DNA of 64,000 bases, from NCBI GenBank assembly GCA_937928045.1, contig CALFWO010000005.1, forward strand, positions 162,726 through 226,725, read 5' to 3'. The notes beneath the pieces were generated by a model, which saw nothing but the letters and a program-made list of their open reading frames with translations, was not told the origin of the DNA and did no database searches. The translations under genes were made by a program, and so were the position numbers. Each line of letters starts with the position of its first letter. The stretch's first letter is position 1. Shown here one piece after another: positions 3,506 through 63,753 of this stretch. This DNA is from an uncultured Saprospiraceae bacterium. GTDB lineage: Bacteria > Bacteroidota > Bacteroidia > Chitinophagales > Saprospiraceae.

Positions 3506-3792
3506 CAAAGTTAAAACGCATTTTTTAGCACAAAAGCTGACGAAGTTCTAATTTTTTCTTGTAAAATCCAAATAAATTATTGAACTTTGAAGTCCTTTCC
3601 TAATACTTTTAAGGAGGCCTAAATCCCATTTGCATTCGGATATCGTATGATAATCTTACACATGTGAGAGAAGCTCGAATCTGAGTCATAATTGATTTCA
3701 ACTTGCGTTGATTTCTTTTTTTGCTCTAAGCTGAATGGAAGGGGTTTTAAAAACATATAGAGTTATTGTTTAATAAACACTAACTCTAAATC

Positions 3793-4800: not shown

Positions 4801-4824
4801 TTCCATTCAGATTGAAATAAAAAT

Positions 4825-4862
4825 AGCGGCATCAATTTACAATTGATGCCGCTTTTTTTATT
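4825..4862. terminator. bidirectional rho-independent terminator between convergent genes
   Basis: AGCGGCATCAATT-tac-AATTGATGCCGCT forms a perfect 13-bp stem. T-runs on both strands (…TTTTTTTATTT on plus; AAAAATA preceding). Confidence 0.6.
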
Positions 4863-4874
4863 TCAATGTATTCA

Positions 4875-5516: not shown

Positions 5517-5679
5517 AAGCCAAGAATTTGATTTATTGATTTCTCTTCAAAAATAGAGAATTATTTTAACAGTTTTAAAGCTAGAAGCCCTTTTGACCTT
5601 TAATGAAAGCTTCGCTCAAAAGAGTTATCAGTATACCTGTTTTACTCAAAAGAAATTATTTTGTTTTAATCTTTTCAGT

Positions 5680-6351: not shown

Positions 6352-6426
6352 TGTTAGCTAATTTGATCAACGGCGAAATTCAGCATCGATAATACCTATT
6401 TTGAATCGAATCCACGAGTACTAAAA

Positions 6427-7605: not shown

Positions 7606-7639
7606 TCAGCAGGCTTTGATTACTTTCAATGTTTTTCTC

Positions 7640-26623: not shown

Positions 26624-27847
26624 TTACTGAACTTTAAAGATTTGATCTCGGCCAAGTAATCTGCCTGAATCATCGAAAAGTCCAAGCCAATAATTTCCTA
26701 TCTCCAATAGACTTAGGTCAATGTAATTGCCTACTTTTTTACCTGAAGCGACCTTATGGCCCAAGTTGTTGTATATGATATATTCTGTAAAGTCTACTAA
26801 TCCTTCTATCGTTAATTGATCACGAACAGGATTTGGATAAAGATTTAACTGTTGTAATGATATTTCATTATTGCGAGTGGTGGCGATTTCATATTTCACT
26901 AATCCCATGGAACTTGCCATCCATAAATTTCCTGCCTGATCACATTTCATTTGCCTAATATTCGCAGTAGGAAGTTCTGAAACAAAAGGGAGAAAATGGG
27001 TAAATGAGTTTTCTTCAAAACTACTAAGTGCATTATATTCAAAACCACCAATCCATATTTTATCATTGTTATCAATAGCGATCTTTGAAGGACTATTAGA
27101 GTGAATATCCGAATTATCCATGTTGTAGATATCAAAGTTATCGATACCATCAAAATGTAAGAGACCTTGGTCCTCTTGGACCAACCAAACATCTCCATTA
27201 CCATCTGTAACAAGGTCAAGAATATCTCCAAAAGGGATGTTGGTATTATTAGGATCAAACTTAGTGATGATATTGTCTTTGATTTTATAAAGTGCTGAAT
27301 TTCCACCAACCCAGAGTGTTTGATTTTGATGATCAAAGATTGACGATTTTGAAAATTTAACTTCGCTCAAATTATTCCAGCTCGTTCCGTCAAAGGATTG
27401 CATTTCATTCCCTGAGCCAAGACCGACATAAAGAATATCATTTTGATTGTCTTTTGCCATGGTTAGAACTGCATCAACTGTCATATCAGAATTCTGACTG
27501 GTCCATGTTTCAAAACTTTCATTGTTATAATCAATACGACTCAGTCCTCCATAGCTACAAACTTCAACAATCCCATCATTGGCGACCATATCAGTGGCGC
27601 GTCCCTGTAAGAGCCCCAGATCATTAGCATTAAGAACGGTCCAGTCTTCATTTTCAAGGAAAGCTATTGTCTCTCCAGTGGAGGTTGCATTTGTGCCAAC
27701 CCAAATAAGCCCAGTACTTTGATCTATGGCTAAAGCTTGTAAAGAATTATCCATATCAGGATTATTGTAATTGAAAAATTCTTGTGCATTAATAACTGAG
27801 CTAAAAGCTACTAGGAAAATTGCAACTAGTGTAAAAGTTGATTTCAT
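26624..27847 (-). CDS. secreted beta-propeller-like protein (two-component-regulator-propeller-type repeats) with T9SS type-A C-terminal domain
   Basis: Signal peptide. Repeated …LWVGT/LWVGG…, ILYVGL, IWIGG, LWMAS strands. C-terminal LNLYPNPVRDQLTIEG…GNYWLGLF tail. Confidence 0.7.
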   Translation of the reverse strand: MKSTFTLVAIFLVAFSSVINAQEFFNYNNPDMDNSLQALAIDQSTGLIWVGTNATSTGETIAFLENEDWTVLNANDLGLLQGRATDMVANDGIVEVCSYGGLSRIDYNNESFETWTSQNSDMTVDAVLTMAKDNQNDILYVGLGSGNEMQSFDGTSWNNLSEVKFSKSSIFDHQNQTLWVGGNSALYKIKDNIITKFDPNNTNIPFGDILDLVTDGNGDVWLVQEDQGLLHFDGIDNFDIYNMDNSDIHSNSPSKIAIDNNDKIWIGGFEYNALSSFEENSFTHFLPFVSELPTANIRQMKCDQAGNLWMASSMGLVKYEIATTRNNEISLQQLNLYPNPVRDQLTIEGLVDFTEYIIYNNLGHKVASGKKVGNYIDLSLLEIGNYWLGLFDDSGRLLGRDQIFKVQ

Positions 27848-43413: not shown

Positions 43414-44460
43414 ATGAAAAAATATTTAGTATTATTTGCAGTGATTCAATTAGTAATTACTCTGCAAGCGCAGGATGTTCATTTGTCGCATATTCATGCT
43501 TCACCGATTCATTTGAATCCGGCGATGACAGGTGTATTTCAAGATGGATATTTAAGATTGATCGCTAACTCAAGGTTGCAATGGGAGACATTTACAAAAG
43601 GTTATAAAACTGTAATGGCTTCTGCTGATTTGAAGTTAGTGAATTTAAATAATAGTTCCATTCTTAGTGGTGGTATTCAAGTTGCTTCTGACAAAGCTGG
43701 AGATTTGAATTTTTCTACAAATACAGCCTCAATTAATTTTTCAGTTCAAAAATCTTTTGATCGTCAAAGTAAGAATGTAGTTTCTTTTGGGTTTCAAGGA
43801 GCATTGATTAATCATAGAATAGATTTTTCAAAAATGATTGGTTATGAAATTGAGACTGAACTAATAACTGATGCACCTGAAACCATTAATGCCTGGGACG
43901 TTAGCACTGGGGTGACGTGGTTTCATTCTTTTTACCCTAAGAATCATTTTTATATTGGAGCAGCTCTGTTTCATTTGAATCAGCCATCCATTAGCTTCTT
44001 CGGAGATTTAGATCTTTACGAATTACCTTATGATGAAGTGGGAAAAATACTCTATAGAAAATTTATAATTCATGGAGGAGGAAAAATTGGTATTCATAAA
44101 AATATTAGTCTTTTACCAAGTTTTTTAATTGCAGATCAGGGACCACATCGAGAAATGAAAATGGGTACATTTTTTAAATATGAAAACAGAAGATCCAGAA
44201 AAGATAATGATTATGCAGTGTATTTGGGAGGTTGGGTCAGATGGTATTTAGAAAAAGATTTGATTGGAACTGATGCTATAGATCTTTCACTGAGAATTGA
44301 TCATGAATCAACCATTTATACTTTTTCGTTTGATGTTAATATTTCTAAACTGACAAGAGTTAGCCAAGGTTTGGGTGGCCCAGAACTTTCAGTGATTAAA
44401 ATATTTGACAAGAAGAATACCAAGCGTAAAAAATTCAAAGTAAAATGTCCAGCACTCTAA
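43414..44460 (+). CDS. T9SS outer-membrane protein, PorP/SprF family (cognate partner of the upstream type-B cargo)
   Basis: Signal peptide. N-terminal SHIHASPIHLNPAMTGVFQDGYLRLIANSRLQWETF parallels the PorP/SprF consensus (…QYMFNPLxLNPAYAG…RxQW). Beta-barrel-like remainder. Starts 37 nt after the type-B CTD adhesin. Confidence 0.8.
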   Translation: MKKYLVLFAVIQLVITLQAQDVHLSHIHASPIHLNPAMTGVFQDGYLRLIANSRLQWETFTKGYKTVMASADLKLVNLNNSSILSGGIQVASDKAGDLNFSTNTASINFSVQKSFDRQSKNVVSFGFQGALINHRIDFSKMIGYEIETELITDAPETINAWDVSTGVTWFHSFYPKNHFYIGAALFHLNQPSISFFGDLDLYELPYDEVGKILYRKFIIHGGGKIGIHKNISLLPSFLIADQGPHREMKMGTFFKYENRRSRKDNDYAVYLGGWVRWYLEKDLIGTDAIDLSLRIDHESTIYTFSFDVNISKLTRVSQGLGGPELSVIKIFDKKNTKRKKFKVKCPAL

Positions 44461-50825: not shown

Positions 50826-51944
50826 CTAAATATCTACCTTTTCAAAATAGGCTCGCTCAGTTAAATCTGACCATGGGCGACCTTTACTTCTAAAGGATTG
50901 ATAAGAAGCGTAAATTTTTCTACACATCTCATCGGATTCCGCTAACTCTTGAATTACGTCTTCGGTATACTTTTTCAATTGAATCATCACTTCATCAGGA
51001 TACGATCGAATTTCAGCCGAAGATTCTTTCTTAATTTTAGCTAAATACTCTCCATTCTTAGCATCGAACTCAGCCAGCATCCATTGATTCAATCTTTCAG
51101 CAGCGCATCTAACAATAGCTTGGAGGTCTTCTGGCAAGCTTTCAAATTTTTCTTTATTGAAGATCATTTCCAGAGCTGTACCAGGTTCATGCCATCCCGG
51201 AGTGTAATAATATTTCGCAATTTGATGAAAGCCCATTTTGTAATCATGGTATGGACCAATCCATTCAGTAGCGTCGATGATTCCTCTTTCTAAGCCCGTA
51301 TACAATTCGCCGCCTGGAAGCAATACTGCGGTACCACCTGCTTTGGCAAGAACCTTTCCGCCAAGGCCAGGCATGCGCATTTTTAATCCTTGAAGATCGT
51401 CAACAGAATTTATTTCTTTATTGAACCAACCGCCCATTTGTACACCGGTATTCCCACCGGGCATAGGAATTAGGTTGAATGGAGCATAGAGTTCTTCCCA
51501 TAGCTGAAGGCCGCCGCCACAGTATAACCAGGAATTTAGCTGTTGGGCATTCATTCCAAAAGGTATGGAGCCGAAGAACTGCGCTGCAGGAGATTTTCCA
51601 GCCCAATAATAGGCGGCGCCACTAGCACATTCTGCGACCTCATTTCTTACAGCATCAAAACAATCCAAGGCAGGGACCAACTCTCCACCTCCATAAACCT
51701 CTATTTCCAAACGTCCACCACTCATCACCTTGACCCATTCAGCCCAAAGTTTAGCGCCTTCTCCTAATACCGGAAAATTCGGTGGCCAAGTGGTTACCAT
51801 TTTCCATTTGTATTTCTTTTCGGTATGAATGGCTGCGGTGTTGCTGTTTTGCTGAGCAATCGGATCTCCTCCACAAGATCTTATAACAAGCGGTAGAGAA
51901 ATAGTACCTAAAGCCAATCCCTTGAAAAATGTTTTCCTTTTCAT
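50826..51944 (-). CDS. periplasmic solute-binding protein, probably TRAP-transporter DctP-like, with Tat-like signal; no adjacent permease genes
   Basis: KRKTFFKGLALG resembles an RRxFLK Tat motif. The α/β periplasmic binding-protein-like pattern (…WKMVTTWPPNFPVLGEGAKLWAEWVKVMSGGRLEIEVYGGGELVPA…) resembles DctP-family proteins. No DctQ/M nearby. Confidence 0.45.
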   Translation of the reverse strand: MKRKTFFKGLALGTISLPLVIRSCGGDPIAQQNSNTAAIHTEKKYKWKMVTTWPPNFPVLGEGAKLWAEWVKVMSGGRLEIEVYGGGELVPALDCFDAVRNEVAECASGAAYYWAGKSPAAQFFGSIPFGMNAQQLNSWLYCGGGLQLWEELYAPFNLIPMPGGNTGVQMGGWFNKEINSVDDLQGLKMRMPGLGGKVLAKAGGTAVLLPGGELYTGLERGIIDATEWIGPYHDYKMGFHQIAKYYYTPGWHEPGTALEMIFNKEKFESLPEDLQAIVRCAAERLNQWMLAEFDAKNGEYLAKIKKESSAEIRSYPDEVMIQLKKYTEDVIQELAESDEMCRKIYASYQSFRSKGRPWSDLTERAYFEKVDI

Positions 51945-52327
51945 TTAATGAAGTTAATAAAACTATTGACAATGCATTAAAATTAACTTATTCAGTTTGT
52001 GCTATTTTAATTCTAGAAAAGCCCAACGTCGAATTCATTAATATTGAATTATTTAAGAGAAATTACAGAAAGCCTCGGTCATTCTATCTTGGGCGCCCGA
52101 TCATCAACAGATTTTCTTGAATTAAAAATGATTTGGGTGAGCCCGTTGGGCCGGGTCATTCGCTCCATCCTGACTTTTTGTCAGTATCCGCTGCTACCCC
52201 TCTCACGTTCCACAGTAGTGCGCTGTGATATTAATTTATGGTAAACTAGGTCGCTCAGTTGAACTTTACAAAAGTAAGTTCCAATTGACGAAAGTGGTTA
52301 AGAGAAATGCTTCTGGGAATTGGAAGG

Positions 52328-54991
52328 TTACCAATAAAACTGAATGTTGAGATTAGGAGTTATTCCAAGATCTGTTTTATTTGTATAGTTCAAACGAATT
52401 TTTTCGTCTGGTTTTTTATCAATAAAAAAGGAACGGTAAATAAAATTTTTTTGATTGTAGATGTTCAAAATGGAAAATCCAATTACTGCTTTCCATTTAC
52501 GTGTTTCAGAAGCAGGAATATTGTATAGAATTGTTGCATCCAGTTGATGTCTAAATGGCAATCTTCCACTGTTGTATTCATTTACAATTGGAACTATGGT
52601 TTCTTTGGTTCCGGGTCCATTGTTAGTTGTTCTAACTTCGAAGTTTTCAATAAGGGAAAACGGTGTTCCCGATGAACCTTTCCATCCTATTGAAAAATTA
52701 AAGTTTTTCAATTTATACAAATGTACCCATTGTAAAATATGAGGTTGTTCAATGTTCGCTGAAAATTCCAAGTCAAAAAACCTAGGAAATGAATGATCAA
52801 TTTGACTAAGCGAATAACTGGCCCAAGATTGATAATTGAACCATCTTTTTTTGATAAGGAAATCGAATCCTTTTATTTTAGCAGTCCCCGGCTTGTAATT
52901 GCCTTGGATCATTTCATCGAAGCCGGTAGCCAATGATGACAACCCATCTATGGTTTTATAATATCCTTGTAATTCAACGGTCCAGCGATTTTTCATAAAT
53001 ACACCGCCTATTTGAAATTGATTAGAACTTAAGACTGGCACTTCTTGGTTTCCTGCAAGTACCCACACTGGAGTTTCGATGCTAGAATTGTCACCTGCGA
53101 TTTGGATCAACTGGCTTAGGAATTGTTGATATCTTCCAGCTTTGAAATTGAATTGTAATAAGTTATTTGGTTGATACCAAAGCCTCAATCTCGGCGAGAA
53201 ATAATTTGATTTCTCCTTTTCGAAATAGCTATATCTAATTCCTAGATTAAATCCAATCTTTTTTCTAGTGGATGAATTGAAACTGGTGTATGTAGCATGA
53301 ACATTGGAAGTTAAATCCCGTTGAACATCATCCTGAGGATTATTTTGCAACTGATTAATGATCTGATGGCTGACATTATATCTAGTCAACTGATAACCTA
53401 ATTTAATTTCAACAATTGAATTTTCATAAATGTCTTTTAAGGAATAGTTGTTACTAAAATGCAGTTGTTTCTCATTGATTTTTGAACTTTTAATTCCATT
53501 TTTTCTATTTCCGTTCTCATTCTGACTTTTAACTTCATAGTCGTAGTCATAGAAATAATCAGAAGAAAGAAACGAAATTGATGATTGAAATTTGGAATTC
53601 CATAAATGATTCCATTTGATTTTAGTCCCAGAATTTTTAAGATATAAACTATCGTTTTGAAGGCTTTTTTCCCTGGTGTTGTCAATGGTTGATTTAAAAT
53701 CATTATTACCATAAAGCCATGCGATCTCGAGATTATCGCTGTTTGATAAGTTTACATTTGCACTTACGTTTGCATCTAGAAAATTAAAGTCTTCTTCAAT
53801 TATTAGGTCTTTAGGAATTCTTCCAGGATTTTCAAGCTCAAGAAGAATACCTTGCTGAATCCTACGTGTGATACTGTTGTAGGTAGGTGAACGCCAGATT
53901 TCAGAGATGGATCTTCTGACAGAGTAGATAATGTTTAGTTTATTTTCCAGAAGAGAAAGATTTCCATGTGCTGAAGCATTAATGAAATTTAATCCAAGAC
54001 CAAAGTTCTTTTTCCTATCAATATTATTTTTAGACTTTAAATCTATTAATCCCGAAATTCTGCCACCATAGTCAGCTCCAAAACCTCCGCGGAAAACTCT
54101 TGCCTGATCCATAATTTCTGGATTTAGCGCAGAGATCATTCCGAAATAATGCGCTGAATGATATAGCGGAATATCTTCCCACAAAATAAGGTTTTGGTCA
54201 GAAGAACCTCCTCTAATACTTAGACTAGCAGAAGAGCCATCAGTAGAAGTAACACCTGGCAAAAATTGTATGCTATTCAATACATTACCGTCTGATTGCC
54301 CGGGTAAAGTTTTTAGTTTTTGTGGATGTACATCAGTGAAATCACCATTCTTCCTAAGTGAAATTCCATCCGTTATATAATCGGTAACAACAACAAGGCC
54401 TTGCTCAATTTCATTAAGTTTCAAATATATTTCTGAACAGTCACCATTACTAATATCACTGGCTTTTAATATTTTATCTTGGTATCCTATATAGCTAATT
54501 ATTACTTGGTCAGATAATTCTGCCTCTATTTGATATTTGAATTTTCCTTCTAAATCCGCAGCAATACCTTTTTTTCTATTAGGAATGAAAATGTTCGCAA
54601 GTACTAATGGGTCACCAGTTTTTTCGTCAAGTATTTGTCCACAGAATGTAAGTGATGGTAAAGAAATACCAGATTCTTTTAATAGCTTATCATTTATTTG
54701 GTAAATTAAAACGTAGCGATTTTCAACTACTTCAAAATCGAGTTCTTTGTTTAAAAGTAATTGAGCTAAAAATTCGTTTATTGAGGTTGAGTGAAAAGAT
54801 CCACTTATCCTGATGCCATCTATTGCTGTTTCAGGGTAAGAAAATAGAAATCCATTTTCTTTTTCTATTTGAGAAAAAACATCAACAAGCGAGGCATTCT
54901 CTACTTCAAGATTAATCGGATATGTTTGTCCAGATGCGAATATCGTCAAGAACAAAAATGAAAGAACAACAAGGCATTGTTTAAAGTACAA
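52328..54991 (-). CDS. TonB-dependent transducer (STN signalling domain + CarboxypepD_reg-like + plug + barrel) of a FecIRA-type cell-surface signalling system
   Basis: Signal peptide. N-terminal STN-like domain (LVDVFSQIEKENGFLFSYPETAI…FLAQLLLNKELDFEVVENRYVLIY). Plug and 22-strand-sized barrel ending …NIQFYW. Immediately downstream of the FecR gene. Confidence 0.85.
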   Translation of the reverse strand: MYFKQCLVVLSFLFLTIFASGQTYPINLEVENASLVDVFSQIEKENGFLFSYPETAIDGIRISGSFHSTSINEFLAQLLLNKELDFEVVENRYVLIYQINDKLLKESGISLPSLTFCGQILDEKTGDPLVLANIFIPNRKKGIAADLEGKFKYQIEAELSDQVIISYIGYQDKILKASDISNGDCSEIYLKLNEIEQGLVVVTDYITDGISLRKNGDFTDVHPQKLKTLPGQSDGNVLNSIQFLPGVTSTDGSSASLSIRGGSSDQNLILWEDIPLYHSAHYFGMISALNPEIMDQARVFRGGFGADYGGRISGLIDLKSKNNIDRKKNFGLGLNFINASAHGNLSLLENKLNIIYSVRRSISEIWRSPTYNSITRRIQQGILLELENPGRIPKDLIIEEDFNFLDANVSANVNLSNSDNLEIAWLYGNNDFKSTIDNTREKSLQNDSLYLKNSGTKIKWNHLWNSKFQSSISFLSSDYFYDYDYEVKSQNENGNRKNGIKSSKINEKQLHFSNNYSLKDIYENSIVEIKLGYQLTRYNVSHQIINQLQNNPQDDVQRDLTSNVHATYTSFNSSTRKKIGFNLGIRYSYFEKEKSNYFSPRLRLWYQPNNLLQFNFKAGRYQQFLSQLIQIAGDNSSIETPVWVLAGNQEVPVLSSNQFQIGGVFMKNRWTVELQGYYKTIDGLSSLATGFDEMIQGNYKPGTAKIKGFDFLIKKRWFNYQSWASYSLSQIDHSFPRFFDLEFSANIEQPHILQWVHLYKLKNFNFSIGWKGSSGTPFSLIENFEVRTTNNGPGTKETIVPIVNEYNSGRLPFRHQLDATILYNIPASETRKWKAVIGFSILNIYNQKNFIYRSFFIDKKPDEKIRLNYTNKTDLGITPNLNIQFYW

Positions 54992-54996
54992 TTAAA

Positions 54997-55944
54997 TTAA
55001 TTTTTAGAAAGTTTAACTTTTCTATTCTGTAGTATATTAAACTTTATTCCTAGAGGGGAGAGGGTCGTTTTTAAAGCCAATTCTAGATTATCCTTTTGAA
55101 AGTTACAAGTAATTACTTCATTAATATTAATGTCAGTATTATCAATATCAATATTGAATTGTCTTTCCAGTTCCTGTAGCACTTCTTTTAATGCAACTTT
55201 TCTAAATTTAAATATTCCGTTCGTCCAAGCAGCTTGATTGGTGTTACCTATATCCCATTTTTTAGTCTGGATTCCTGAGGAGATTCGAACGGCTTCTCCC
55301 GCAGATAATTCTACCATTTTTTTTCCTAACTTATTCATAATCGCGACCTTTCCTTCCTGACAGCTTACCTCTAAATTTTGATCTCGAGCATAAACATTAA
55401 AATGAGTACCCAAGACCAAAACAGATCCACTGCTCGTATAAACTTCAAAGGTTGACCCTTTTTTTACTTCGAAATACGCTTCGCCTGATAAGTTTAATTT
55501 TCGTTCTTTTAACCAATTTTTGTCGTCAAAAGAAATCTCACTTTCCGCATTTAGAATAAATGTAGACTGATCAGGCAATACGCCAGTTTTGTTTTCTCCT
55601 TTTGATATTTTGTAGTTGGTTACAGTAGAAGATTTGGGCCAAAAAAAGATTCCAATCAAAATTAAAGCAGTAGCCGCTAATCCATATTTTAACCAAGGTG
55701 ATAAAAAATCTTTTCGACTGCTATTTGTTTGATTATTCTCTTTCTTAGCAACCGATTCCGCCTTCTTATGGTTCAAAATATTATGTAGCATGCTAGTCTT
55801 GTCAAACTGAGGTGCCATCAAATGCTCCGTTTGTTTATACAACTCTAGCAAAGATTTATATTCTGGTCTAGCTTGAAAAATTTTCAATTCTTCGTCAGAA
55901 ATGCTTCCTGCTATCCATTTATGTAAAAGTTCGTCATTTTCCAT
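54997..55944 (-). CDS. FecR-family anti-sigma factor / signal relay protein
   Basis: Cytoplasmic N-terminus, single TM (LAATALILIGIFFW), then a periplasmic FecR-type domain (…LPDQSTFILNAESEISF…SGEAYFEV…). 60 nt downstream of the ECF sigma gene. Confidence 0.85.
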   Translation of the reverse strand: MENDELLHKWIAGSISDEELKIFQARPEYKSLLELYKQTEHLMAPQFDKTSMLHNILNHKKAESVAKKENNQTNSSRKDFLSPWLKYGLAATALILIGIFFWPKSSTVTNYKISKGENKTGVLPDQSTFILNAESEISFDDKNWLKERKLNLSGEAYFEVKKGSTFEVYTSSGSVLVLGTHFNVYARDQNLEVSCQEGKVAIMNKLGKKMVELSAGEAVRISSGIQTKKWDIGNTNQAAWTNGIFKFRKVALKEVLQELERQFNIDIDNTDININEVITCNFQKDNLELALKTTLSPLGIKFNILQNRKVKLSKN

Positions 55945-56004
55945 TTTTAGTTGATAATTATTACTTCCGATCTAAATACAGCCGAGTTCCTTAAAGACCT
56001 ACCT

Positions 56005-56517
56005 TTAAGGAATTAATTTGGAGACTTTTCTTAAACTATTTAAAGCATTATACATTCTCTTTTCTACAGCTTGCTTGCTAATTCCGAGGAGACTTGCTAT
56101 TTCTTTATAAGTTTTTTTGTCGATTCTACTCATTAAAAATACAACTCGCTGCTTCTCGGGTAATTCAGAAATCGCTTGTTCTAGTTGTCTTTGGAATTCT
56201 TTTTCTTCGATAATAAATTCAGGATCTTGAATATTGATGTTATTGGTTGAACGTTGTTCAAAGGCCAAAACCACCTTCTGATGACTAATTTGATTGAGCA
56301 TTAGATTTTTGGCAGTTTTAAAAACATATCCTTTGGCGGTAGCAAAAATCACTTTTTTGCAATTCTGCCAAAGTTTTACGAATGCTTCTTGAGTGAGATC
56401 CTGTGCTAAATTTTTATTCCCCGTTTTGTAAAAGAGGTAGTTATGAAGCGAAATCGCATACTCGTCAAAAACTTGGGAGAAAGTGGCCTCGTCACACAGA
56501 GAAATTGGTTTACTCAT
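56005..56517 (-). CDS. ECF (sigma-70 family group IV) RNA polymerase sigma factor
   Basis: Region 2 (LAQDLTQEAFVKLWQN) and region 4 HTH (KTYKEIASLLGISKQAVEKRMYNALNSLRK). Confidence 0.85.
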   Translation of the reverse strand: MSKPISLCDEATFSQVFDEYAISLHNYLFYKTGNKNLAQDLTQEAFVKLWQNCKKVIFATAKGYVFKTAKNLMLNQISHQKVVLAFEQRSTNNINIQDPEFIIEEKEFQRQLEQAISELPEKQRVVFLMSRIDKKTYKEIASLLGISKQAVEKRMYNALNSLRKVSKLIP

Positions 56518-56655
56518 AATTATTTCGAATTTTTCTTCAAAACAAAGTAGGTCTTTTGTAAAACGCCCTGTCTTTATATTAAAGAGACGAATTCGCCTGC
56601 AAATTACGGATAACAGTTGATTTTGTTGTGTTCTATAATTATATATCTGAAGCCG

Positions 56656-57867
56656 ATGAACAAGAAAAATGTAGAAGATATTTTAGCACGAAGAGAAATT
56701 TTATTGCTGCTATTGATATTGATTGGATTTACTTCTTGTGTTCCGGACAATAATCTAGGTAGTGATACAATTGATATAAATACACTTGATCCAAACAACG
56801 GAACAAACTCGAATAGTACCTCAATGGTGGAATTGGGTAGGCAATTGTTTTGGGATCCAGTATTATCTGGTGGAATGGATGTGGCTTGTGTAAGTTGTCA
56901 TCATCCTGATTTTGCTTATGCTGATGGTAGGGCATTGCCTATTGGCGTTGGAGGACAAGGACTGGGGCCACAAAGAATTGATGCAGTAAATGACAACATT
57001 GGTTTGGTAGGAAGAAATTCTCCAACTATCCTTAATACGGCATTTAACGGGCTGGATGAAAATGGAAATTTTAATCCAGTAACCGCGCCTATGTTTTGGG
57101 ACAATCGGGCGCAAAGTTTGGAATCTCAAGCTATCCAACCTTTGCTATCATTTGAAGAAATGCGGGGTCATGCCTTTGATGAAACGGTGGCCATAGATAG
57201 TATTGTAGCGCGTCTTGAAGCGATACCAGAATACGTCTTAAATTTCAACAATGTTTTTGGGAATAATTCTTCCATTAATTCTGATAATATTGGTACTGCT
57301 ATAGCCGCTTTCGAACGGACCATTTTAGCAACGGATAGTCCTTTTGATCGATTTCAAGCAGGCGACAATAGTGCTTTGACAAATGCTCAGATTAGAGGAA
57401 TGAATACCTTTCAAAGAGTTGGATGCGAAGATTGCCACAGTGGCTCAATGTTTTCAGATTTTGAATTACATACTATTGGTGTGCCGGATAGTCCACTTTT
57501 AAATGAAACAGATTCTGGTGCCAATGGGAACTATGAGTTTCGAACTCCAACTCTAAGAAACCTTCCGCAAACAGGCCCTTATTTTCACAACGGAGTTGCA
57601 GGTTCATTGGAAGAAACAATTCGATTCTATATAACTGCAAGAAATTTCGCAAACAACAATGGAAATGGTGGACCAGAAAATTTAAAGATTAACCCTAATG
57701 TAAACAGAAATCAATTGGACAACGATATTAGAAATCTGGGCCCAATAAATAATAACAATGTTCAAGATATTATCCAGTTTTTACATGCATTGAACGACAC
57801 GAATTTTGATAAAATAATTCCTACTTCGGTTCCAAGTGGATTGAATCCCGGTGGTAATATTAACTAA
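56656..57867 (+). CDS. di-heme cytochrome c peroxidase (CcpA/MauG family) lipoprotein
   Basis: Lipoprotein signal (LILIGFTSC). Two heme-binding CxxCH motifs (CVSCHH, CEDCHS). Family-typical spacing and the PxFHNG region (GPYFHNGVAGSLEE). Start placed at the internal Met (MNKKN…). Confidence 0.85.
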   Translation: MNKKNVEDILARREILLLLLILIGFTSCVPDNNLGSDTIDINTLDPNNGTNSNSTSMVELGRQLFWDPVLSGGMDVACVSCHHPDFAYADGRALPIGVGGQGLGPQRIDAVNDNIGLVGRNSPTILNTAFNGLDENGNFNPVTAPMFWDNRAQSLESQAIQPLLSFEEMRGHAFDETVAIDSIVARLEAIPEYVLNFNNVFGNNSSINSDNIGTAIAAFERTILATDSPFDRFQAGDNSALTNAQIRGMNTFQRVGCEDCHSGSMFSDFELHTIGVPDSPLLNETDSGANGNYEFRTPTLRNLPQTGPYFHNGVAGSLEETIRFYITARNFANNNGNGGPENLKINPNVNRNQLDNDIRNLGPINNNNVQDIIQFLHALNDTNFDKIIPTSVPSGLNPGGNIN

Positions 57868-58012
57868 TTAACTAATTAACTGCTTAATGCTCAAGGACGC
57901 TTGAGTGTGAATCTTAATTTAAAGCAATGCTTTAAGTAGGCCCCTTTTGTCAATTTTCAAAATTGTACTCGTACTGAAGAATATTTATTCAAATAACTAA
58001 AAACATTTAAAT

Positions 58013-60163
58013 ATGGCACTCCCAATCAGAAAATTAGATTTACGATATTTTGAATTACCTCTGAGTTTTGGAATATTGATATTTATCTTATTGTTAGTCG
58101 GACTAGATGCTTCTTATGCTCAGAACACCCCGTCAGAAAATGAAATTAAAATTTATGGAACAAACTTTCAAACTTTTAAACATATTCCTAGAATCAAAAA
58201 CAGCAATCGTTCTGTTTGTAGTCATCAACCTAATCGTACAATTGATGGTACCTGTAATAATATTGTAAATACCAGTACTATGGTTTGGGGTGCTACAGAT
58301 ATTCCTTTGTTCCGTGAGATGCCTTCAGCTTACGGAGCTCCTGACTTTTATAATGATATGGCAGGGCAATGCAGATTGTCACCTAGAGTAATTTCAAACT
58401 TGGTTGTTGCTCAGGATGGTGATTTACCAAGCCCGAGAAATTTATCTTCCTTGGTATTTACTTGGGGACAATTCCTAGATCACGATATTGATCTTACACC
58501 AGAAGGTGAAACAGAATATGTACCAATTTTACTTTCTGCAAATGAACCACTTTTTACACAGCCAATTCCTTTTTTAAGATCTGAACCTTTTCCAAATTCG
58601 GGTGTGAACGGTCCAAGAGAGCAGGAAAATATAATTACTTCATGGATTGATGCTTCTCAAGTGTATGGTTCAGAAGAAACGAGGGCTATGTGGTTGAGAA
58701 CATTTACTGAAGGTAAGTTAAAAACTTCTGAAGGGAATCTACTGCCCTATAATACAGTTGATGGTAATCTCGATAGCGCAATCGATCCAAACGCTCCAAG
58801 TATGGCCGGTGACAGTGATGGCACAGTTAAAGTTTTTGTTGCTGGAGATGTTCGAGCGAATGAACAACCGGGACTAACATCTATGCATACTTTGTTTGTA
58901 AGAGAACACAATCGTCTTTGTGATCAGATTAACAATGAACCAGGTAGTAATTTTTCCGATGAGGAAGTATACCAGCAAGCTAGAAAACTTGTTGGAGCAT
59001 ATATGCAAAACATTACCTACGAACACTTTCTTCCTGCTTTAGGGGTTGAATTAGAAAATTATAATGGTTACAAACCTAATGTTCAACCTGATATCAGTAA
59101 TATATTCGCTTCTGCGGCTTATCGATTAGGTCATACAATGGTCACAGATGAAATTCCCTTGATTGCTGAAGATTGTGAATTAGTTGATGATGGTTTCATT
59201 GCTTTATTGGATGGATTTTTTAATCCTACGGTAGTACAAGAAAATGGGATTGAACCACTTATTCAGGGTTTGGCAAGTCAGATTCAACAGAAAGTGGATG
59301 CTAAGATTGTAGACAACTTAAGAAATTTTTTATTTCCAGTACCTGGATCTAATCAAACCTTTGGATTAGATCTGGCTTCTCTGAACCTTCAAAGGGGCAG
59401 AGATCACGGATTGCCGGATTATAATGCAGTACGAACTTTTTACGGCCAAGAATCCGCAAGTGGATTTGAGGATATAACCACTGATCTTGAGTTACAAACT
59501 GCGCTGTCAAAAGCCTATGGCTCAGTATATGATATGGACCTCTGGGTAGGCCTATTGTCAGAAGATCCAATGTCAGGAACTTCAATTGGTCCAACCTTAA
59601 ATGCAATTCTCTCCCAGCAATTTGAGATTTTGCGGAATGGTGATTATTATTTTTATCAAAATGACCCTGTGTTGAGTAATCAGGCTAAAGAGCAAATTAG
59701 ACGTACAGATCTCGCTGAAATCATAGAACGCAATACATCAATTTCAAGAATTCAAAATAATGTGTTTTTTGCAAGAGATTGTGGTGATTCACCCGGAGGT
59801 GGCAATGGACCCGGAGGGCCAGGTCGACCTAATCGTCCTAGAAATGATGGTGGAGTAAATCAAATAAACATTAATTCGAGTGTTGACAACAACTTCAATA
59901 CTTCAACTTTAAATTTATACCCAAATCCGAATCAAGGTCTTTTTGAGATTAATTTCCTAAAGGAAGAGCTTACTCAAAATGTTCGAATGAATATTGTTGA
60001 TATCAATGGTCGAATAGTGTACAACGACGAGTTAAATACAACTGAAAAAAGTATAAATTTTAAACTTGATATGAGTCATCTATCTCCAGGATTGTACATC
60101 GTAAAAATAAGTTCAGGAGATGCTGTTTATACCCAAAGAATGATGATTAATAAAAAGGAATAG
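58013..60163 (+). CDS. animal-type heme peroxidase (peroxidase-cyclooxygenase superfamily) with T9SS type-A C-terminal sorting domain
   Basis: Signal peptide. Distal-His/Ca motif region (TWGQFLDHDIDLTP). Proximal region (MHTLFVREHNRLC). …LPDYNAVR…, Gly/Pro-rich linker. C-terminal LNLYPNPNQGLFEINF…PGLYIVKI tail. Confidence 0.8.
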   Translation: MALPIRKLDLRYFELPLSFGILIFILLLVGLDASYAQNTPSENEIKIYGTNFQTFKHIPRIKNSNRSVCSHQPNRTIDGTCNNIVNTSTMVWGATDIPLFREMPSAYGAPDFYNDMAGQCRLSPRVISNLVVAQDGDLPSPRNLSSLVFTWGQFLDHDIDLTPEGETEYVPILLSANEPLFTQPIPFLRSEPFPNSGVNGPREQENIITSWIDASQVYGSEETRAMWLRTFTEGKLKTSEGNLLPYNTVDGNLDSAIDPNAPSMAGDSDGTVKVFVAGDVRANEQPGLTSMHTLFVREHNRLCDQINNEPGSNFSDEEVYQQARKLVGAYMQNITYEHFLPALGVELENYNGYKPNVQPDISNIFASAAYRLGHTMVTDEIPLIAEDCELVDDGFIALLDGFFNPTVVQENGIEPLIQGLASQIQQKVDAKIVDNLRNFLFPVPGSNQTFGLDLASLNLQRGRDHGLPDYNAVRTFYGQESASGFEDITTDLELQTALSKAYGSVYDMDLWVGLLSEDPMSGTSIGPTLNAILSQQFEILRNGDYYFYQNDPVLSNQAKEQIRRTDLAEIIERNTSISRIQNNVFFARDCGDSPGGGNGPGGPGRPNRPRNDGGVNQININSSVDNNFNTSTLNLYPNPNQGLFEINFLKEELTQNVRMNIVDINGRIVYNDELNTTEKSINFKLDMSHLSPGLYIVKISSGDAVYTQRMMINKKE

Positions 60164-60183
60164 AACATCAAGCGTATGATATT

Positions 60184-60231
60184 AAAAGTCGTCACTTAAT
60201 TCTTAAGTGGCGACCTTTAATATCATTTTTT
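60184..60231 (+). terminator. rho-independent terminator of the heme peroxidase gene
   Basis: GTCGTCACTTAA-ttc-TTAAGTGGCGAC forms a 12-bp stem with one G·U, followed by a T-run. Confidence 0.55.
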
Positions 60232-61029
60232 AATAAAAATAGGTATGTAAGAATGAAAGGAAAGCAAGAAAGGTTTTTTACCACATTTCGATTGCTCTTT
60301 AGATTAATTAGATAAGTGTAATCAAAGATTGATTTTTGAAAACAATGTGTTTGATTCTGCGGATTGTCATATGTTAGTCAGTTTGTTGGAATCTTTACAG
60401 ATATTTGGTTTGAAGAAATTTGCAATCAAGGAAGTATTCGCAATAAACTTCGGGATAAGAGCATTTTCAAAATGTATTTTGCAAAGACTTTCAATCATGA
60501 ATATTTAGACAAATTTGCTAAGCCTATTCGTTTATATTTTCCTGAAATAAAATAAATAGATACGTGCAGTAATTTCTTTTGATGTAATATCTTTTTTTGA
60601 TATGCGAAAATTACTGTCTTTTAAATATAACTCTCTTTCCAACTATCCATTATTTATTCCTACCTTTGCTTTTAATGAAAGAACTAATACATCAGCAAGC
60701 AGGAGACTTTATTTTTTGGAAAATGGAAGATAACTACAGTATCATTCTACTAGCTGGTATCAATCGTAAGAAAGAAAAGGAATTTAAGCTTAATGAAACC
60801 GAGAAGAAGCATTACCTAGATCGTGGTATGGCTTACATTCGTGAGTTGGTAAAAAAGAAAGGATAAATAATGTTATTTGTGTCTGAAAAGTCATTTGCTA
60901 ACAAATTTTGTTATTCCTGTTATATAATGTCATTGCAATAGACTTAAGAATTTTCTCCATTAAAATTGCATCAGTCGTTTAAGCGATAAACTGAGAACCT
61001 AAAAAAGTTCAGTTGTTGTTCATTCCGGT

Positions 61030-63753
61030 TTACATTGTAAGGCCAGTTTCTTTCTTATTTCTACCCAACCTGTACTTTATACCCGCCAAAAAGTAGCGTG
61101 TCAAGGTATTGAAACGCTGTTCAAATACTCCATTTAGGCCACCAGATCTTGAAAGGCCAACATTTTGCTTGAGGATATCATAGGCCTCAAGGCTAATTTG
61201 CCACTTATTTTCTTTAAAACTCTTAGTCAAGCTAGCATTCCAGAGGTTGTATTGGATGCCTTCCGAAAATATTTCATTGGAGTAATTATGAAAGTCATAT
61301 GAACTGGATAAGGTCCAATCTTTAGTGATAAACCAATCGGCCTCTATGAATAACTTATAGTTAAGAAATTGTTGGTTAAAATTAGATTCTAGAGCATAGG
61401 CCCTCGTATTGTAATTGAACTGAGTACCAACAGCGATATCCAGTTTTTCTTTTTTGCGGTTCTCCAATACAAAACTTAAGCCCATGGATTGCTCCTCAAC
61501 AGGACTTTTCTGTTCGTTCAGAAATCCTTCGTAAGTGGAATAGCTATAGTTGACATTTGCTCTAAATTTTATCTTAAGTGGACGAATTGGAGCATTGAAT
61601 GTGAGCCTTCCTATTAGACGTAAGTGCTGATCTAAGTTAATTGGTGAAAATGTTTTTAGAAAATTTTCATCAATAGTCACTTGATCGTTAACCCAATTGT
61701 TTGTTAATTCTGCAATTGAGTAAGCGAATAGATTTGTGAAATTGAATTGATCGATGATGCTAAATCTTGCTTGAATTTGATGTTTGTATGCTGGTTCCAA
61801 ATTCGGATTCCCTTTAAAAAGAATATTGGGATTACTATTGTCTGGCAACGGAGCAAGCTGATTTAAACTTGGTAAGTCAATCTGAGTCGTGTAGTTAAAA
61901 CTAAGCTTTGAAATTTTTGTCAATGTATGTTCAATTGACAGCGATGGCAAAATGTAAAAATTTTGATTTAAGATAGATTCTTCTAAACTTGAAATAGCTC
62001 CTTTAATTTTTGCCCATTGCGAAGTAATTCCGGCGTTAAGTTTTATTTTTTTTGTATTTCTTCTGATTGATAATTGTGCTTTTTGAATTGTATTCGTTTT
62101 TGTAAATTGATTCGAAAAGTCTTCATTAAAAATTTGCGAGGAATTGATAACATCATAGAATTTCTGAATCGGAAGTTCTTCTTCGTTTTCAAAATTATAC
62201 GAACCAGATAAATAGGAATATTTACCCAATGGCTCCGTGTAGACAGAGCGAAGTTCTACTTTGTTATTGGTAAATCGAAAATCTTGAAGTTGTGTGATCA
62301 CAGTTCTAGGAGTAGTTAATTCTAATAAGTTATTCAACTCCCTATCTTCTGTTAGACTTCCCAACTGGTAGTTTATTCTGTTAATCCAATTTCTACCTTT
62401 CTTTTGGAATTTTTTTCGCAACTGGATATTGCCATCGATTCCCAATTGATCATTATTTTGCATGGTCAATCTTTGGGTTAAGCCTGTAGCGAGTTCGTTG
62501 GTAAAAAATTGAGTGGTATCCTTGTGAACTTCGTTGTTATCAGCAATACTCAAATTATTTGTCCACTTCCACTGAATGAATGGAGAAGGTTTAAAATCTA
62601 ATTTTACCTGAACACGATGTTGTTGATTGCTTTGAGTTAAGTTGGATGAAGAGTTTGTTGAAAAATTTTCACTACCTGTGAATTCTTTGCTAAAGGTATT
62701 TTCTTGAATAGATTGATCGTTGTTTAATAGAAAGTAATGGCTACGTATTATAAACTTTGAAGAAAAATCATAGTTGAAATTAATTCCTGTTGAAATGTTT
62801 TCAGTCAAACCTCTAGGAGCGGAACCTTGCCCAAATTCTCCAAAATTTATTAAGCCATTGTTGCCAGCAATCGCATTTCCAATGCCACCCATTAATTGAA
62901 TGTACTCGTTGAACGAAAAAGCTTGCTTGTTGATATTATTCGCGTTGGCGATAATTGCAGCTTGCATCTTCGGATTGAATCGATTGTAATTTAATTTTCC
63001 ATTGAATCGCTCCTCGGTCCCTGCTTGTAACTCTAAAGCACCAAACCCTCCTTTCTTGTATTCTTCCTTTAGCTTTAGGTTAATTGTTTTTTCATCTGCT
63101 CCATCATCAATTCCAGTGAATTCGGCGATCTCAGATTTTTTGTCAAATACTTGCACCTTGTCTACAGCTTCGGCTTCAAGATTTTGAGTGGCAATCTTGG
63201 CATCTGATCCAAAAAATTCTTTTCCATCTACCAATACATTTTCAACATCCTCTCCCATCGCTTTGATAGTTCCGTCTCGAGTAACTTCGACTCCTGGTAA
63301 TTTTTTAAGCAAATCTTCAACAGTGGCGCCTGGCCTTGTTTTGAAAGCAGAAGCGTTGTAGTTAATAGTATCTCCGTCAATTCCCATGGGTATGTGCTCC
63401 GCCTTAACTTCCACAATTTGCAAGACTTCTTCCTCAGATTCCAATTTAAATATTCCCAAGTCTTGTACTTTGTTTTCTGCATTGACTGTTATCGCTAATT
63501 CTTGATTTGAAAAAGAAACAAAACTCAATTGAAGCACATAACTTCCCTCGACTATATCTTCCAATTTGAATTTTCCGTTGTGATCCGAAATGGCAAATGC
63601 GACCATGGAGGAATCTTGAATTTCTAACAAGACGACGGTAGTACCTTGTAAATTTTCTCCGTCGGTATCTTGAATTATTCCGTGGAGCACTCCTTGAGCC
63701 AAAGTGGTTCCAGCGGTAAGTATGAATAATAGAGAGATCAATACAGTTTTCAT
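61030..63753 (-). CDS. TonB-dependent receptor / outer-membrane beta-barrel family protein (CarboxypepD_reg-like + plug)
   Basis: Signal peptide. N-terminal VLHGIIQDTDGENLQGTTVVLLE…DHNGKFKLEDIVEGSYVLQLSFVSF. Plug region (DGDTINYNASAFKTRPGATVEDLLKKLPGVEV…). 907 aa. Confidence 0.75.
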   Translation of the reverse strand: MKTVLISLLFILTAGTTLAQGVLHGIIQDTDGENLQGTTVVLLEIQDSSMVAFAISDHNGKFKLEDIVEGSYVLQLSFVSFSNQELAITVNAENKVQDLGIFKLESEEEVLQIVEVKAEHIPMGIDGDTINYNASAFKTRPGATVEDLLKKLPGVEVTRDGTIKAMGEDVENVLVDGKEFFGSDAKIATQNLEAEAVDKVQVFDKKSEIAEFTGIDDGADEKTINLKLKEEYKKGGFGALELQAGTEERFNGKLNYNRFNPKMQAAIIANANNINKQAFSFNEYIQLMGGIGNAIAGNNGLINFGEFGQGSAPRGLTENISTGINFNYDFSSKFIIRSHYFLLNNDQSIQENTFSKEFTGSENFSTNSSSNLTQSNQQHRVQVKLDFKPSPFIQWKWTNNLSIADNNEVHKDTTQFFTNELATGLTQRLTMQNNDQLGIDGNIQLRKKFQKKGRNWINRINYQLGSLTEDRELNNLLELTTPRTVITQLQDFRFTNNKVELRSVYTEPLGKYSYLSGSYNFENEEELPIQKFYDVINSSQIFNEDFSNQFTKTNTIQKAQLSIRRNTKKIKLNAGITSQWAKIKGAISSLEESILNQNFYILPSLSIEHTLTKISKLSFNYTTQIDLPSLNQLAPLPDNSNPNILFKGNPNLEPAYKHQIQARFSIIDQFNFTNLFAYSIAELTNNWVNDQVTIDENFLKTFSPINLDQHLRLIGRLTFNAPIRPLKIKFRANVNYSYSTYEGFLNEQKSPVEEQSMGLSFVLENRKKEKLDIAVGTQFNYNTRAYALESNFNQQFLNYKLFIEADWFITKDWTLSSSYDFHNYSNEIFSEGIQYNLWNASLTKSFKENKWQISLEAYDILKQNVGLSRSGGLNGVFEQRFNTLTRYFLAGIKYRLGRNKKETGLTM

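Follow-up and report, generated by a model that had tools for sequence, protein, structure and literature searches.

Cell-surface signaling of the FecIRA type, as in the E. coli Fec system and the Pseudomonas Fpv, Fox, Fiu and Pup systems, combines an ECF sigma factor, a FecR-type regulator and a TonB-dependent transducer with an N-terminal signaling domain. It is known almost entirely as a controller of iron-carrier uptake in Proteobacteria, and most characterized systems import iron carriers (PMC9249621). In contrast, the very numerous ECF/anti-sigma/transducer sets of Bacteroidota are assumed to serve glycan uptake, and a 2021 survey found that no member of the corresponding sigma group, ECF240 (formerly ECF10), had been characterized experimentally (PMC7826278). 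In the methanobactin and copper systems of methanotrophs, MbnT-like transducers with MbnI and MbnR homologs sit next to MbnH-type MauG-like di-heme enzymes and a co-encoded extracytoplasmic partner protein (MbnIRT with MbnPH; PMC3621798). Here we describe a Bacteroidota locus in which such a trio faces two predicted exported peroxide-using enzymes and shares a conserved promoter-like motif with them. Literature searches combining a haloperoxidase or heme peroxidase with an ECF sigma factor or a TonB-dependent transducer found no description of this pairing.

Organization of the locus

The locus lies in a 64,000-nucleotide stretch of uncultured Saprospiraceae DNA, referred to as the window. The nearest relatives are Saprospiraceae MAGs. 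The features are as follows, with coordinates in the window.

52328–54991, minus strand: TonB-dependent transducer, 887 aa, with a signal peptide, an STN-like signaling domain (about residues 26–98), a CarboxypepD_reg-like domain, a plug and a 22-strand-type barrel
54997–55944, minus strand: FecR-type anti-sigma/sigma regulator, 5 bp upstream of the transducer gene, with an N-terminal cytoplasmic part, one transmembrane helix (about residues 84–103) and periplasmic FecR and FecR_C domains
55973–56002, minus strand: site 2, ECF-type promoter motif GTAGGTCTTT-N12-TGTATTTA, starting 3 nt after the stop codon of the sigma gene and pointing into fecR and the transducer gene
56005–56517, minus strand: ECF sigma factor, 170 aa, Bacteroidetes FecI-like type
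56547–56576, plus strand: site 1, ECF-type promoter motif GTAGGTCTTT-N12-TGTCTTTA, 79 nt upstream of the ATG of the di-heme gene and pointing at the di-heme/peroxidase operon
56600–56607, minus strand: possible housekeeping (sigma-A type) -7 box for the sigma gene
56656–57867, plus strand: MauG-like di-heme lipoprotein, 403 aa
58013–60163, plus strand: predicted secreted animal-type (lactoperoxidase-like) heme peroxidase, 716 aa, with a signal peptide, a peroxidase domain at residues 75–585, a Gly/Pro/Asn-rich linker and a T9SS type-A C-terminal domain
60188–60214, plus strand: terminator-like hairpin (12-bp stem), 25 nt after the peroxidase stop codon

An earlier note, made from the sequence alone, had described a complete FecI/FecR/FecA-type trio sharing a divergent promoter region of about 140 bp with a di-heme cytochrome-c peroxidase lipoprotein, followed by a T9SS-secreted heme peroxidase. 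This observation is confirmed: all five genes are present at the positions given there, and the divergent spacer (56518–56655) measures 138 bp. The listed di-heme open reading frame begins at a TTG at 56617, whereas the ATG at 56656 agrees with the public gene call.

Profile searches against Pfam and NCBIfam support these assignments. The sigma factor contains regions 2 and 4 only (Sigma70_r2 and r4_2). It scores 126.1 bits against the Bacteroidetes-type model TIGR02985, for which the cut-off is 126.4, but matches the FecI equivalog models only weakly (53 bits against 260), so that it is FecI-like but not a FecI ortholog. The regulator matches FecR (6.9e-18) and FecR_C (9e-07), and its single hydrophobic segment is visible in the translation. 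The transducer matches Plug (3.9e-11) and CarbopepD_reg_2, with weak N-terminal STN/FecR_C hits at residues 30–97 (STN 18.7 bits, below the cut-off of 28.4; FecR_C-like 20.9 bits). Although the STN domain is weak by sequence, other evidence supports it. A sequence search of the PDB returned no hit at E<=0.01, so a structure was predicted instead; the AlphaFold2 model (pLDDT 83) shows a beta-alpha-beta N-terminal domain at residues 26–98 in front of the plug and barrel, and its best Foldseek matches are the full-length signaling transducers FpvA and FoxA. The transducer belongs to a family of about 545 homologs of roughly 880 aa in Saprospiraceae and other Bacteroidota, many of which carry precomputed STN/FecR_C hits. 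It is not of the SusC/RagA type, as no NCBIfam hit (TIGR04056) was obtained, and no SusD gene follows; the next gene downstream, 383 bp away, encodes a DctP-family binding protein.

The heme peroxidase carries the T9SS type-A domain by two models (PF18962, 1.5e-15; TIGR04183, 9e-14). The window also encodes PorP/SprF and several other T9SS cargo proteins, which makes T9SS export plausible. The hairpin after the peroxidase gene likely marks the end of the operon, although the number of such hairpins across the region was not above chance (4 found against 5.5 expected).

The block is conserved across loci with different flanks

The note had named loss of synteny in relatives, or constitutive peroxidase promoters unrelated to the sigma factor, as observations that would count against its reading; both were examined, and neither was found. 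The full five-gene block occurs in 8 loci, the window's own and seven others (our loci L002 and L162–L167), with unrelated flanks and with peroxidase identity falling to 55%. The peroxidases of these loci form one clade. Scans of metagenomes and genomes seeded with the peroxidase, which covered only part of the relatives, returned mostly distant relatives (55% identity or less) without the trio, and the informative contexts came from exact look-ups of the closest homologs. About 145 of 157 loci with peroxidase homologs have no trio nearby.

Searching from transducer homologs at 34–46% identity revealed the same trio facing other partners. At locus L168 the partner is the di-heme gene alone, at L170 a peroxidase followed by a second MauG-like gene, and at L171 a vanadium-haloperoxidase-like lipoprotein. 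The family's outputs are not uniform, however: L169 has only a 66-aa ORF and an OmpA-family gene in the output position, and L172 has no divergent output within 8 kb. Contig-length coincidences between the three homolog lists (peroxidase, transducer and di-heme) suggest that at least 17 contigs carry both a transducer and a di-heme homolog.

A paired ECF-like motif precedes both operons

Comparison of the spacers identified a bipartite ECF-like motif, TAGGTCTTT-N12-YTGTCTTTA (core GGTC-N16-GTC). The GAAC...CGTC-like motif proposed in the note is not present. The motif occurs twice per locus, at the same two positions and orientations, in all 13 trio loci that have a divergent output gene (26 sites). 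Site 1 is present in 13 of 14 trio loci, always oriented toward the divergent output gene, while site 2 holds its position and orientation in all 14. L170 contains a third copy in front of its second MauG-like gene. The spacers are otherwise unalignable and range from 91 to 455 bp. In the window, two exact matches were found, against 0.10 expected by chance even allowing 3 mismatches, and a relaxed pattern gave 17 matches in the 9 module loci included in that scan and none in 158 other loci. Recognition of the motif by the co-encoded sigma factor is inferred from this comparison alone.

The sigma gene itself appears to have its own housekeeping-type promoter and no copy of the motif upstream. 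The reverse complement of 56600–56607 reads GTAATTTG, an imperfect match to the Bacteroidetes consensus TAnnTTTG, and a perfect TAnnTTTG lies on the trio strand 20–56 nt beyond site 1 in 9 of 13 loci; this assignment is inference only. A sigma-70 consensus scan of 51900–61100 gave 44 hits against 34.6 expected and is not informative, because Bacteroidota use different housekeeping promoters. In the 145-bp spacer between the di-heme and peroxidase genes, the sequence GTAGGCCCC...GTCAAT has the wrong spacing for a separate copy of the motif, and we therefore treat the two genes as one operon.

Predicted properties of the two enzymes

The di-heme protein (CCP_MauG, 2.1e-45) contains two CxxCH motifs but is MauG-like rather than a classical cytochrome-c peroxidase, as the note had called it. 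Canonical bacterial di-heme peroxidases have a His/Met-ligated electron-transfer heme, whereas MauG-like (His/Tyr) enzymes such as MauG, MbnH and BthA have a Tyr axial ligand. In alignments with PDB sequences, the position of the presumed Met ligand of the Paracoccus cytochrome-c peroxidase (KIMSSA) is Tyr (RFYITA), and the IGHGWQ segment of the bacterial peroxidases is IGVGGQ, so that the distal His, which ligates the peroxidatic heme of the canonical resting enzyme, is replaced by Val. The same holds in all 9 module orthologs. ETIRFY aligns with TAILFY of MauG, whose Tyr is the heme ligand Tyr294, and FWDNR keeps the Trp between the hemes. The Tyr is invariant in 9 of 9 module orthologs and present in 117 of 120 family members. 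The next-best NCBIfam hits are the MauG, MbnH and His-Xaa-Ser families, but the protein does not belong to the specific MauG or MbnH equivalogs (159 and 156 bits against cut-offs of 444 and 363; TIGR04039 is the model scoring 156 against 363). Most orthologs carry a lipoprotein Cys followed by QKDD(D/E), which matches an experimentally defined export signal (PMC5080379). In the window, the lipoprotein signal ends ...GFTSC and the sequence that follows is degenerate (CVPDNN), lacking a good surface-export signal.

The heme peroxidase (An_peroxidase, 6.5e-142) keeps the catalytic residues of the halide-oxidizing lactoperoxidase type. WGQFLDHD, GDVRANEQ and AYRLGHT align with MPO and CyanoPOX, and the distal Q153, D156 and H157, R281 and E284, and the proximal H374 are invariant in 17 homologs. 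The best PDB match is CyanoPOX (8S6C, E 4e-135), which oxidizes iodide best (kcat 885 per s; PMC11776367). CyanoPOX binds its heme non-covalently as isolated, so that retention of Asp and Glu does not prove a covalent heme or a halide preference. The L171 protein matches the Zobellia vanadium-dependent haloperoxidase 4CIT, an iodoperoxidase, at E 2e-23, with K-x6-RP, PSGH and R-x5-H conserved.

A proposed signal-controlled peroxidase regulon

We propose, with fair but not full confidence, that the locus is a cell-surface-signaling regulon. In this model, an extracellular ligand would bind the transducer, whose STN-like domain would signal to the FecR-type regulator in the inner membrane, and the co-encoded sigma factor would be released or activated and direct RNA polymerase to the two promoters. 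Site 2 would drive fecR and the transducer gene, giving feedback on the sensor, while site 1 would drive the output operon. The apparent lack of autoregulation resembles FecI, which is not known to be autoregulated. The likely chemistry is H2O2-dependent oxidation outside the cell, most plausibly of halides or pseudohalides (I-, Br-, SCN-) to hypohalous oxidants, and the MauG-like enzyme would either mature the peroxidase or oxidize a second substrate. Gene content, conserved synteny, the paired motif and conservation of the catalytic residues are demonstrated by the sequence comparisons, whereas use of the motif by this sigma factor, halide oxidation, the ligand and the role of the di-heme enzyme are inferred, and no step rests on experimental evidence. 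The vanadium-haloperoxidase substitution is a single case, at 34% transducer identity, and no H2O2 source or inner-membrane transporter is conserved in the block. The note's interpretation, a signal-controlled extracellular peroxide-handling or peroxidative substrate-modifying system, is supported, although the second wording fits better than the first, and the pairing that the note considered not commonly described has a partial precedent in MbnIRT with MbnPH.

Of the alternatives, a metal-acquisition system in the style of MbnIRT-MbnPH or EfeUOB, unlikely on present evidence, would retain the same regulatory wiring; the transducer would import a metal or metal chelate (Cu, Fe or Mn), and the enzymes would process a partner protein or oxidize Fe(II) or Mn(II) at the cell surface to make it available. 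The MbnH precedent, the family hits of the di-heme protein, the prevalence of iron-carrier import among characterized systems and the link of bacterial animal heme peroxidases (MopA) to Mn(II) oxidation favor this reading. However, no MbnP-like partner is present, no periplasmic binding protein or inner-membrane transporter is conserved in the block, the transducer has no detectable sequence relative among solved siderophore or heme receptors, and the replacement in L171 points to halide chemistry rather than metal oxidation. That replacement, together with the absence of linked heme-uptake genes, also led us to reject as the main idea that the transducer supplies heme to the enzymes. It is less likely still that the motif is an operator for another DNA-binding regulator, such as a response regulator recognizing direct repeats. 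The motif does contain GTCTTT twice, about 21 bp apart, and LytTR-type two-component systems lie next to the trio in L169 and L170, but no such regulator is conserved across the 14 loci, whereas the sigma gene is always present, and the spacing and strict orientation toward the downstream gene in all 27 sites fit ECF promoter architecture. The motif is also absent from 158 unrelated loci.

Defensive detoxification, in which the transducer senses a cue associated with a host or algal oxidative burst and the enzymes simply consume H2O2 at the cell envelope, appears improbable. Both enzymes use H2O2, and canonical CCP_MauG members detoxify periplasmic H2O2 (PMC11892367), yet the canonical ligands are replaced, exporting a lactoperoxidase-type enzyme that generates stronger oxidants is a poor way to detoxify, and neither catalase nor AhpC is linked to the block. 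Fortuitous adjacency, with the trio regulating only its own transducer and the peroxidase genes having independent promoters, could be argued from the many peroxidase loci without a trio and from L172, but is very unlikely given the conserved block, the same motif before both operons in 13 loci and the third copy in L170.

A more far-reaching possibility, which we consider doubtful but which would be of considerable interest if true, is an inducible bacterial "oxidative burst". The transducer would sense a cue from prey, a competitor or an algal host, and the cell would display a hypohalous-acid generator on its surface, functionally parallel to neutrophil myeloperoxidase, with the MauG-like enzyme acting as a dedicated maturase or activator, for example by installing heme-protein or side-chain cross-links. 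Cell-surface signaling would then regulate chemical warfare, or signal destruction, rather than nutrient uptake.

The analysis defines a predicted regulon for one Bacteroidota transducer family, with a concrete promoter motif and a non-nutritional, oxidative output, and gives a direct handle for testing how these sigma factors recognize promoters. It suggests that environmental Saprospiraceae and related bacteria deploy haloperoxidase chemistry on cue, which bears on marine and freshwater halogen cycling, on algal-bacterial and predator-prey interactions and on the unexplained abundance of "animal" heme peroxidases in bacteria. It also adds a new candidate partner type for MauG-like di-heme enzymes.

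Comparison with known systems

The locus shares with FecIRA-type systems the three-part architecture, the apparent lack of sigma autoregulation, an inferred sigma-dependent promoter before the transporter gene and the predicted transducer fold. It differs in its Bacteroidota host and Bacteroidetes-specific sigma family, in the extra CarboxypepD_reg-like domain of a transducer without a sequence-level PDB relative, and in an inferred promoter that lies upstream of fecR rather than only of the receptor gene. Its output is predicted exported peroxidases instead of iron-carrier transport genes; no iron-transport genes lie in the block, and no Fur-type control is evident. The ECF240 sets with SusC-type transducers of polysaccharide utilization loci belong to the same phylum and the same sigma and anti-sigma families, and share the STN plus CarboxypepD_reg arrangement and partner enzymes that are surface lipoproteins or secreted proteins, but here there is no SusD gene, SusC/RagA signature or glycoside hydrolase, and the outputs are oxidative enzymes.

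Among enzymes, bacterial members of the peroxidase-cyclooxygenase superfamily (CyanoPOX; LspPOX) and mammalian LPO/MPO share the distal and proximal residues described above, whereas the protein studied here has a T9SS C-terminal sorting domain, lies under inferred ECF control and is paired with a MauG-like gene. The vanadium-dependent haloperoxidases of marine Bacteroidota are non-homologous and not present in this window; the homolog in L171, which occupies the output position of an orthologous trio behind the same motif, serves only as functional corroboration. The closest precedent is MbnIRT with MbnPH, together with SACCP/MopE, in which a FecIRA-like trio likewise lies next to a MauG-like di-heme enzyme and a partner protein, and whose His/Tyr-type di-heme chemistry is implied here by the conserved Tyr. 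In our locus the partner is a lactoperoxidase-like heme enzyme rather than MbnP or MopE, the MbnH model scores far below its cut-off, the phylum is different, and no methanobactin genes or copper link are present.

Gene content of the locus

The ORF list, together with Pfam and NCBIfam scans, confirmed the observation of the earlier note, a complete sigma/anti-sigma/transducer trio divergent from two peroxidase-type genes. The five genes are arranged as follows:

56005-56517, minus strand: ECF sigma factor with regions 2 and 4, scoring 126.1 against a cut-off of 126.4 with the Bacteroidetes-type model TIGR02985
54997-55944, minus strand: FecR-type regulator with FecR and FecR_C domains and one hydrophobic segment
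52328-54991, minus strand: TonB-dependent protein of 887 aa, starting 5 bp after fecR, with Plug and CarboxypepD_reg-like domains and weak STN/FecR_C hits at residues 30-97
56656-57867, plus strand: CCP_MauG-family lipoprotein with two CxxCH motifs
58013-60163, plus strand: An_peroxidase domain with a signal peptide and a T9SS type-A C-terminal domain

The divergent spacer is 138 bp long. The window, which is identical to a Logan metagenome contig, is rich in T9SS cargo (7640-10165, 16738-22578, 23926-26523, 26624-27847, 34921-43377, 43414-44460), including a reprolysin-like metalloprotease, a 1946-aa cadherin/Ig adhesin, two CHU_C-tailed proteins (one of 2818 aa) and a Reg_prop protein, with a PorP/SprF gene directly after the 2818-aa gene. 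Just downstream of the peroxidase operon lies a 907-aa CarboxypepD_reg plus OMP_b-brl_3 outer-membrane protein (61030-63753, minus strand), which on the longer public contig is followed by a Porph_ging-family gene and a two-component system. This protein is not conserved next to the module in other loci.

Because the STN assignment of the transducer was weak, we examined it by structure prediction. An AlphaFold2 model built on 40 homologues (pLDDT 83, pTM 0.74) shows a beta-alpha-beta N-terminal domain and a beta-sandwich, followed by plug and barrel. The best Foldseek matches of this model are full-length FpvA and FoxA, both of which are signalling transducers. By sequence, in contrast, the protein has no PDB relative at E<=0.01. 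It carries no SusC/RagA signature in the NCBIfam scan, and no SusD gene follows it.

Conservation of the pairing

To assess whether the pairing is conserved, we first searched with the peroxidase. Among the 80 loci returned by a scan of species-representative genomes, only the two closest Bacteroidota loci carry the trio: L002 (65% identity) has all five genes, while in L006 (59%) the trio faces the peroxidase directly. The metagenome scan, which was partial, returned more distant relatives without the trio. Exact look-ups of the closest metagenomic homologues gave six more loci with the complete block (L162, L163, L164, L165, L166 and L167), with unrelated flanks on both sides. In a neighbour-joining tree the peroxidases of the eight complete blocks, including that of the window, form one clade, and those of L006 and L170, a locus reached from the transducer, form a second trio-linked clade, with unlinked peroxidases sitting between the two. 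A more distant peroxidase locus without a trio, L021 (43% identity; peroxidase at 6201-8204, plus strand), also has a CCP_MauG-family gene about 3.6 kb upstream (1557-2576, plus strand), which hints that the link between the di-heme enzyme and the peroxidase extends beyond the signalling module. In two of the loci, a second pair consisting of an ECF sigma gene next to an OMP beta-barrel gene lies within a few kb of the module (L163 1662-3633 and L164 12618-14490); this pair is absent from the window.

We then searched with the transducer, whose family has about 545 homologues of roughly 880 aa. Five look-ups at 34-46% identity (L168-L172) all found sigma, FecR and transducer together, but the divergent partner varied:

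L168: the di-heme gene alone
L169: a 66-aa hydrophobic ORF (5969-6169, minus strand) followed by an OmpA-family gene (4799-5587, minus strand), with no peroxidase
L170: a T9SS peroxidase followed by a second MauG-like gene (2486-3817, minus strand)
L171: a lipoprotein (4856-6325, minus strand) whose best PDB match is the Zobellia vanadium-dependent haloperoxidase 4CIT (E 2.4e-23), with K-x6-RP, PSGH and R-x5-H conserved
L172: no divergent gene

The outputs of the transducer family are therefore not uniform. In L171, the genes downstream of the vanadium-haloperoxidase-like gene (252, 542 and 150 aa, and a DUF6175 protein) have no known function and may belong to the same operon. Contigs of equal size across the three homologue tables suggest that at least 17 contigs carry both a transducer-family and a di-heme-family protein, although this is a proxy rather than proof.

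A shared promoter-like motif

Side-by-side comparison of the spacers revealed an island of identity in otherwise unalignable sequence, TAGGTCTTT-N12-YTGTCTTTA, which occurs twice per locus. Site 1 lies in the divergent spacer on the strand of the output gene, and site 2 begins 2-166 nt after the stop codon of the sigma gene and points into fecR and the transducer gene. In the window these are:

56547-56576, plus strand: site 1, 79 nt before the di-heme ATG
55973-56002, minus strand: site 2

The window holds two exact matches, against 0.10 expected even with three mismatches allowed. A relaxed pattern gave 17 matches in the nine module loci included in that comparison and none in 158 other loci. 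All 13 trio loci with a divergent gene carry both sites in the same orientation, while L172 keeps site 2 only. Site 1 precedes the peroxidase in L006 and L170, the vanadium-haloperoxidase-like gene in L171, and only the 66-aa ORF with its following OmpA-family gene in L169. L170 has a third copy (3885-3916, minus strand) between the peroxidase gene and the downstream second MauG-like gene. The latter encodes a 443-aa MauG/MbnH-like di-heme protein of a different subfamily, which also has the Tyr 14 residues after the conserved His.

The core of the motif reads GGTC-N16-GTC, which is ECF promoter geometry. No copy faces the sigma gene. Instead, on the trio strand, 20-56 nt beyond site 1, 9 of 13 loci carry TAnnTTTG, often as TTTGTAAATTTGG (among them L002, L006, L163, L165 and L167-L170); the window has only the imperfect GTAATTTG (56600-56607, minus strand). 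TAnnTTTG matches the Bacteroidetes housekeeping -7 box. It would place the promoter of the sigma gene face-to-face with the ECF-type promoter, so that the sigma mRNA leader would be antisense to site 1. The simplest reading is that the sigma gene is expressed from a housekeeping promoter and is not autoregulated, while the sigma factor drives fecR plus the transducer gene and the output operon.

Further sequence features accompany the motif. A perfect palindrome, CGAATTCG (window 56588-56595), lies 12 nt after the -10-like element of site 1, near the predicted transcription start, and related (T/C)TCGAAT sequences follow site 1 in most other loci. The divergent spacers of four loci are longer, at 261-455 bp (L162 8162-8616, L163 8018-8471, L164 5020-5280, L165 6225-6531), and share conserved blocks beyond the promoter motif (for example CATTAAAGCTGCCAC ... 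ATCATCAAAATTCATATTTATAGATTTATAAC) that are absent from the 138-bp spacer of the window. These blocks could be a leader RNA, a small ORF or a second regulatory site. A hairpin with a 12-bp stem at 60188-60214 follows the peroxidase gene.

Predicted properties of the output enzymes

The peroxidase aligns with myeloperoxidase and lactoperoxidase over the whole catalytic domain. It keeps the distal Gln, Asp and His (WGQFLDHD), the Arg and Glu (GDVRANEQ) and the proximal His (AYRLGHT), which are invariant in 17 homologues. The closest solved structure is CyanoPOX (8S6C, E 4e-135), whose best substrate is iodide (kcat 885 per s) and whose heme was non-covalent as isolated, although the Asp and Glu are present (PMC11776367).

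The di-heme protein, which the earlier note had called a cytochrome-c peroxidase, is about 30% identical to canonical enzymes of that type. However, the position aligned to their presumed Met ligand is Tyr, and the segment holding their distal His reads IGVGGQ. Its C-terminal third aligns best with MauG, placing its Tyr on MauG Tyr294. This Tyr is invariant in nine module orthologues and present in 117 of 120 family members. The protein is therefore MauG/MbnH/BthA-like, although it does not reach the cut-off of any specific equivalog. Enzymes of this kind typically oxidise a co-encoded partner protein.

Most di-heme orthologues have C-Q-K-D-D-(D/E) after the lipobox, which matches the experimentally defined Bacteroidetes surface-export signal (PMC5080379). 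The protein encoded in the window has CVPDNN, so its surface exposure is uncertain. The L171 vanadium-type enzyme is also a lipoprotein, with acidic residues after the Cys.

Inferred mechanism

The best supported reading is a ligand-gated cell-surface-signalling switch that turns on exported H2O2-dependent oxidising enzymes. Two lines of evidence point to halide oxidation: the heme enzyme is of the halide-oxidising type, and in one relative a non-homologous vanadium-haloperoxidase-like enzyme sits in the same regulated slot, although this substitution rests on a single locus. The MauG-like enzyme may either mature the peroxidase or act in parallel, and the transducer might import a reaction product. 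Whereas the gene arrangement is confirmed by the analysis, every functional step, from ligand sensing and promoter use to the chemistry of the enzymes, is inferred. With these refinements, our results support the interpretation put forward in the earlier note, namely a signal-controlled extracellular peroxide-handling or peroxidative substrate-modifying system. The resulting prediction is specific, comprising a promoter motif, a regulon and an enzyme chemistry, and can be tested directly.

We weighed this reading against metal acquisition in the Mbn style, peroxide detoxification, fortuitous adjacency of the two operons, and a role of the motif as an operator for another regulator. LytTR-type two-component systems (histidine kinase plus response regulator) lie next to the trio in two loci (L169 2014-3913; L170 11339-13116), but these are relevant only to the idea that the direct-repeat-like motif is an operator.

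Comparison with known systems

Full-text literature searches found no description of a peroxidase or haloperoxidase under this kind of control. Bacteroidetes FecI-like sigma factors (ECF240) are attributed to carbohydrate scavenging, and none had been studied experimentally by 2021 (PMC7826278). The architecture of the module is FecIRA-like, but it differs in phylum and sigma family, in the extra transducer domain, in promoter placement and in output. The nearest precedent for a trio next to a MauG-like enzyme and its partner is MbnIRT with MbnPH, where isolated MbnPH pairs sit near MbnT-like transducers that have MbnI and MbnR homologues (PMC3621798). Here, the partner is a peroxidase, and the score of the di-heme protein with the MbnH model is far below its cut-off.
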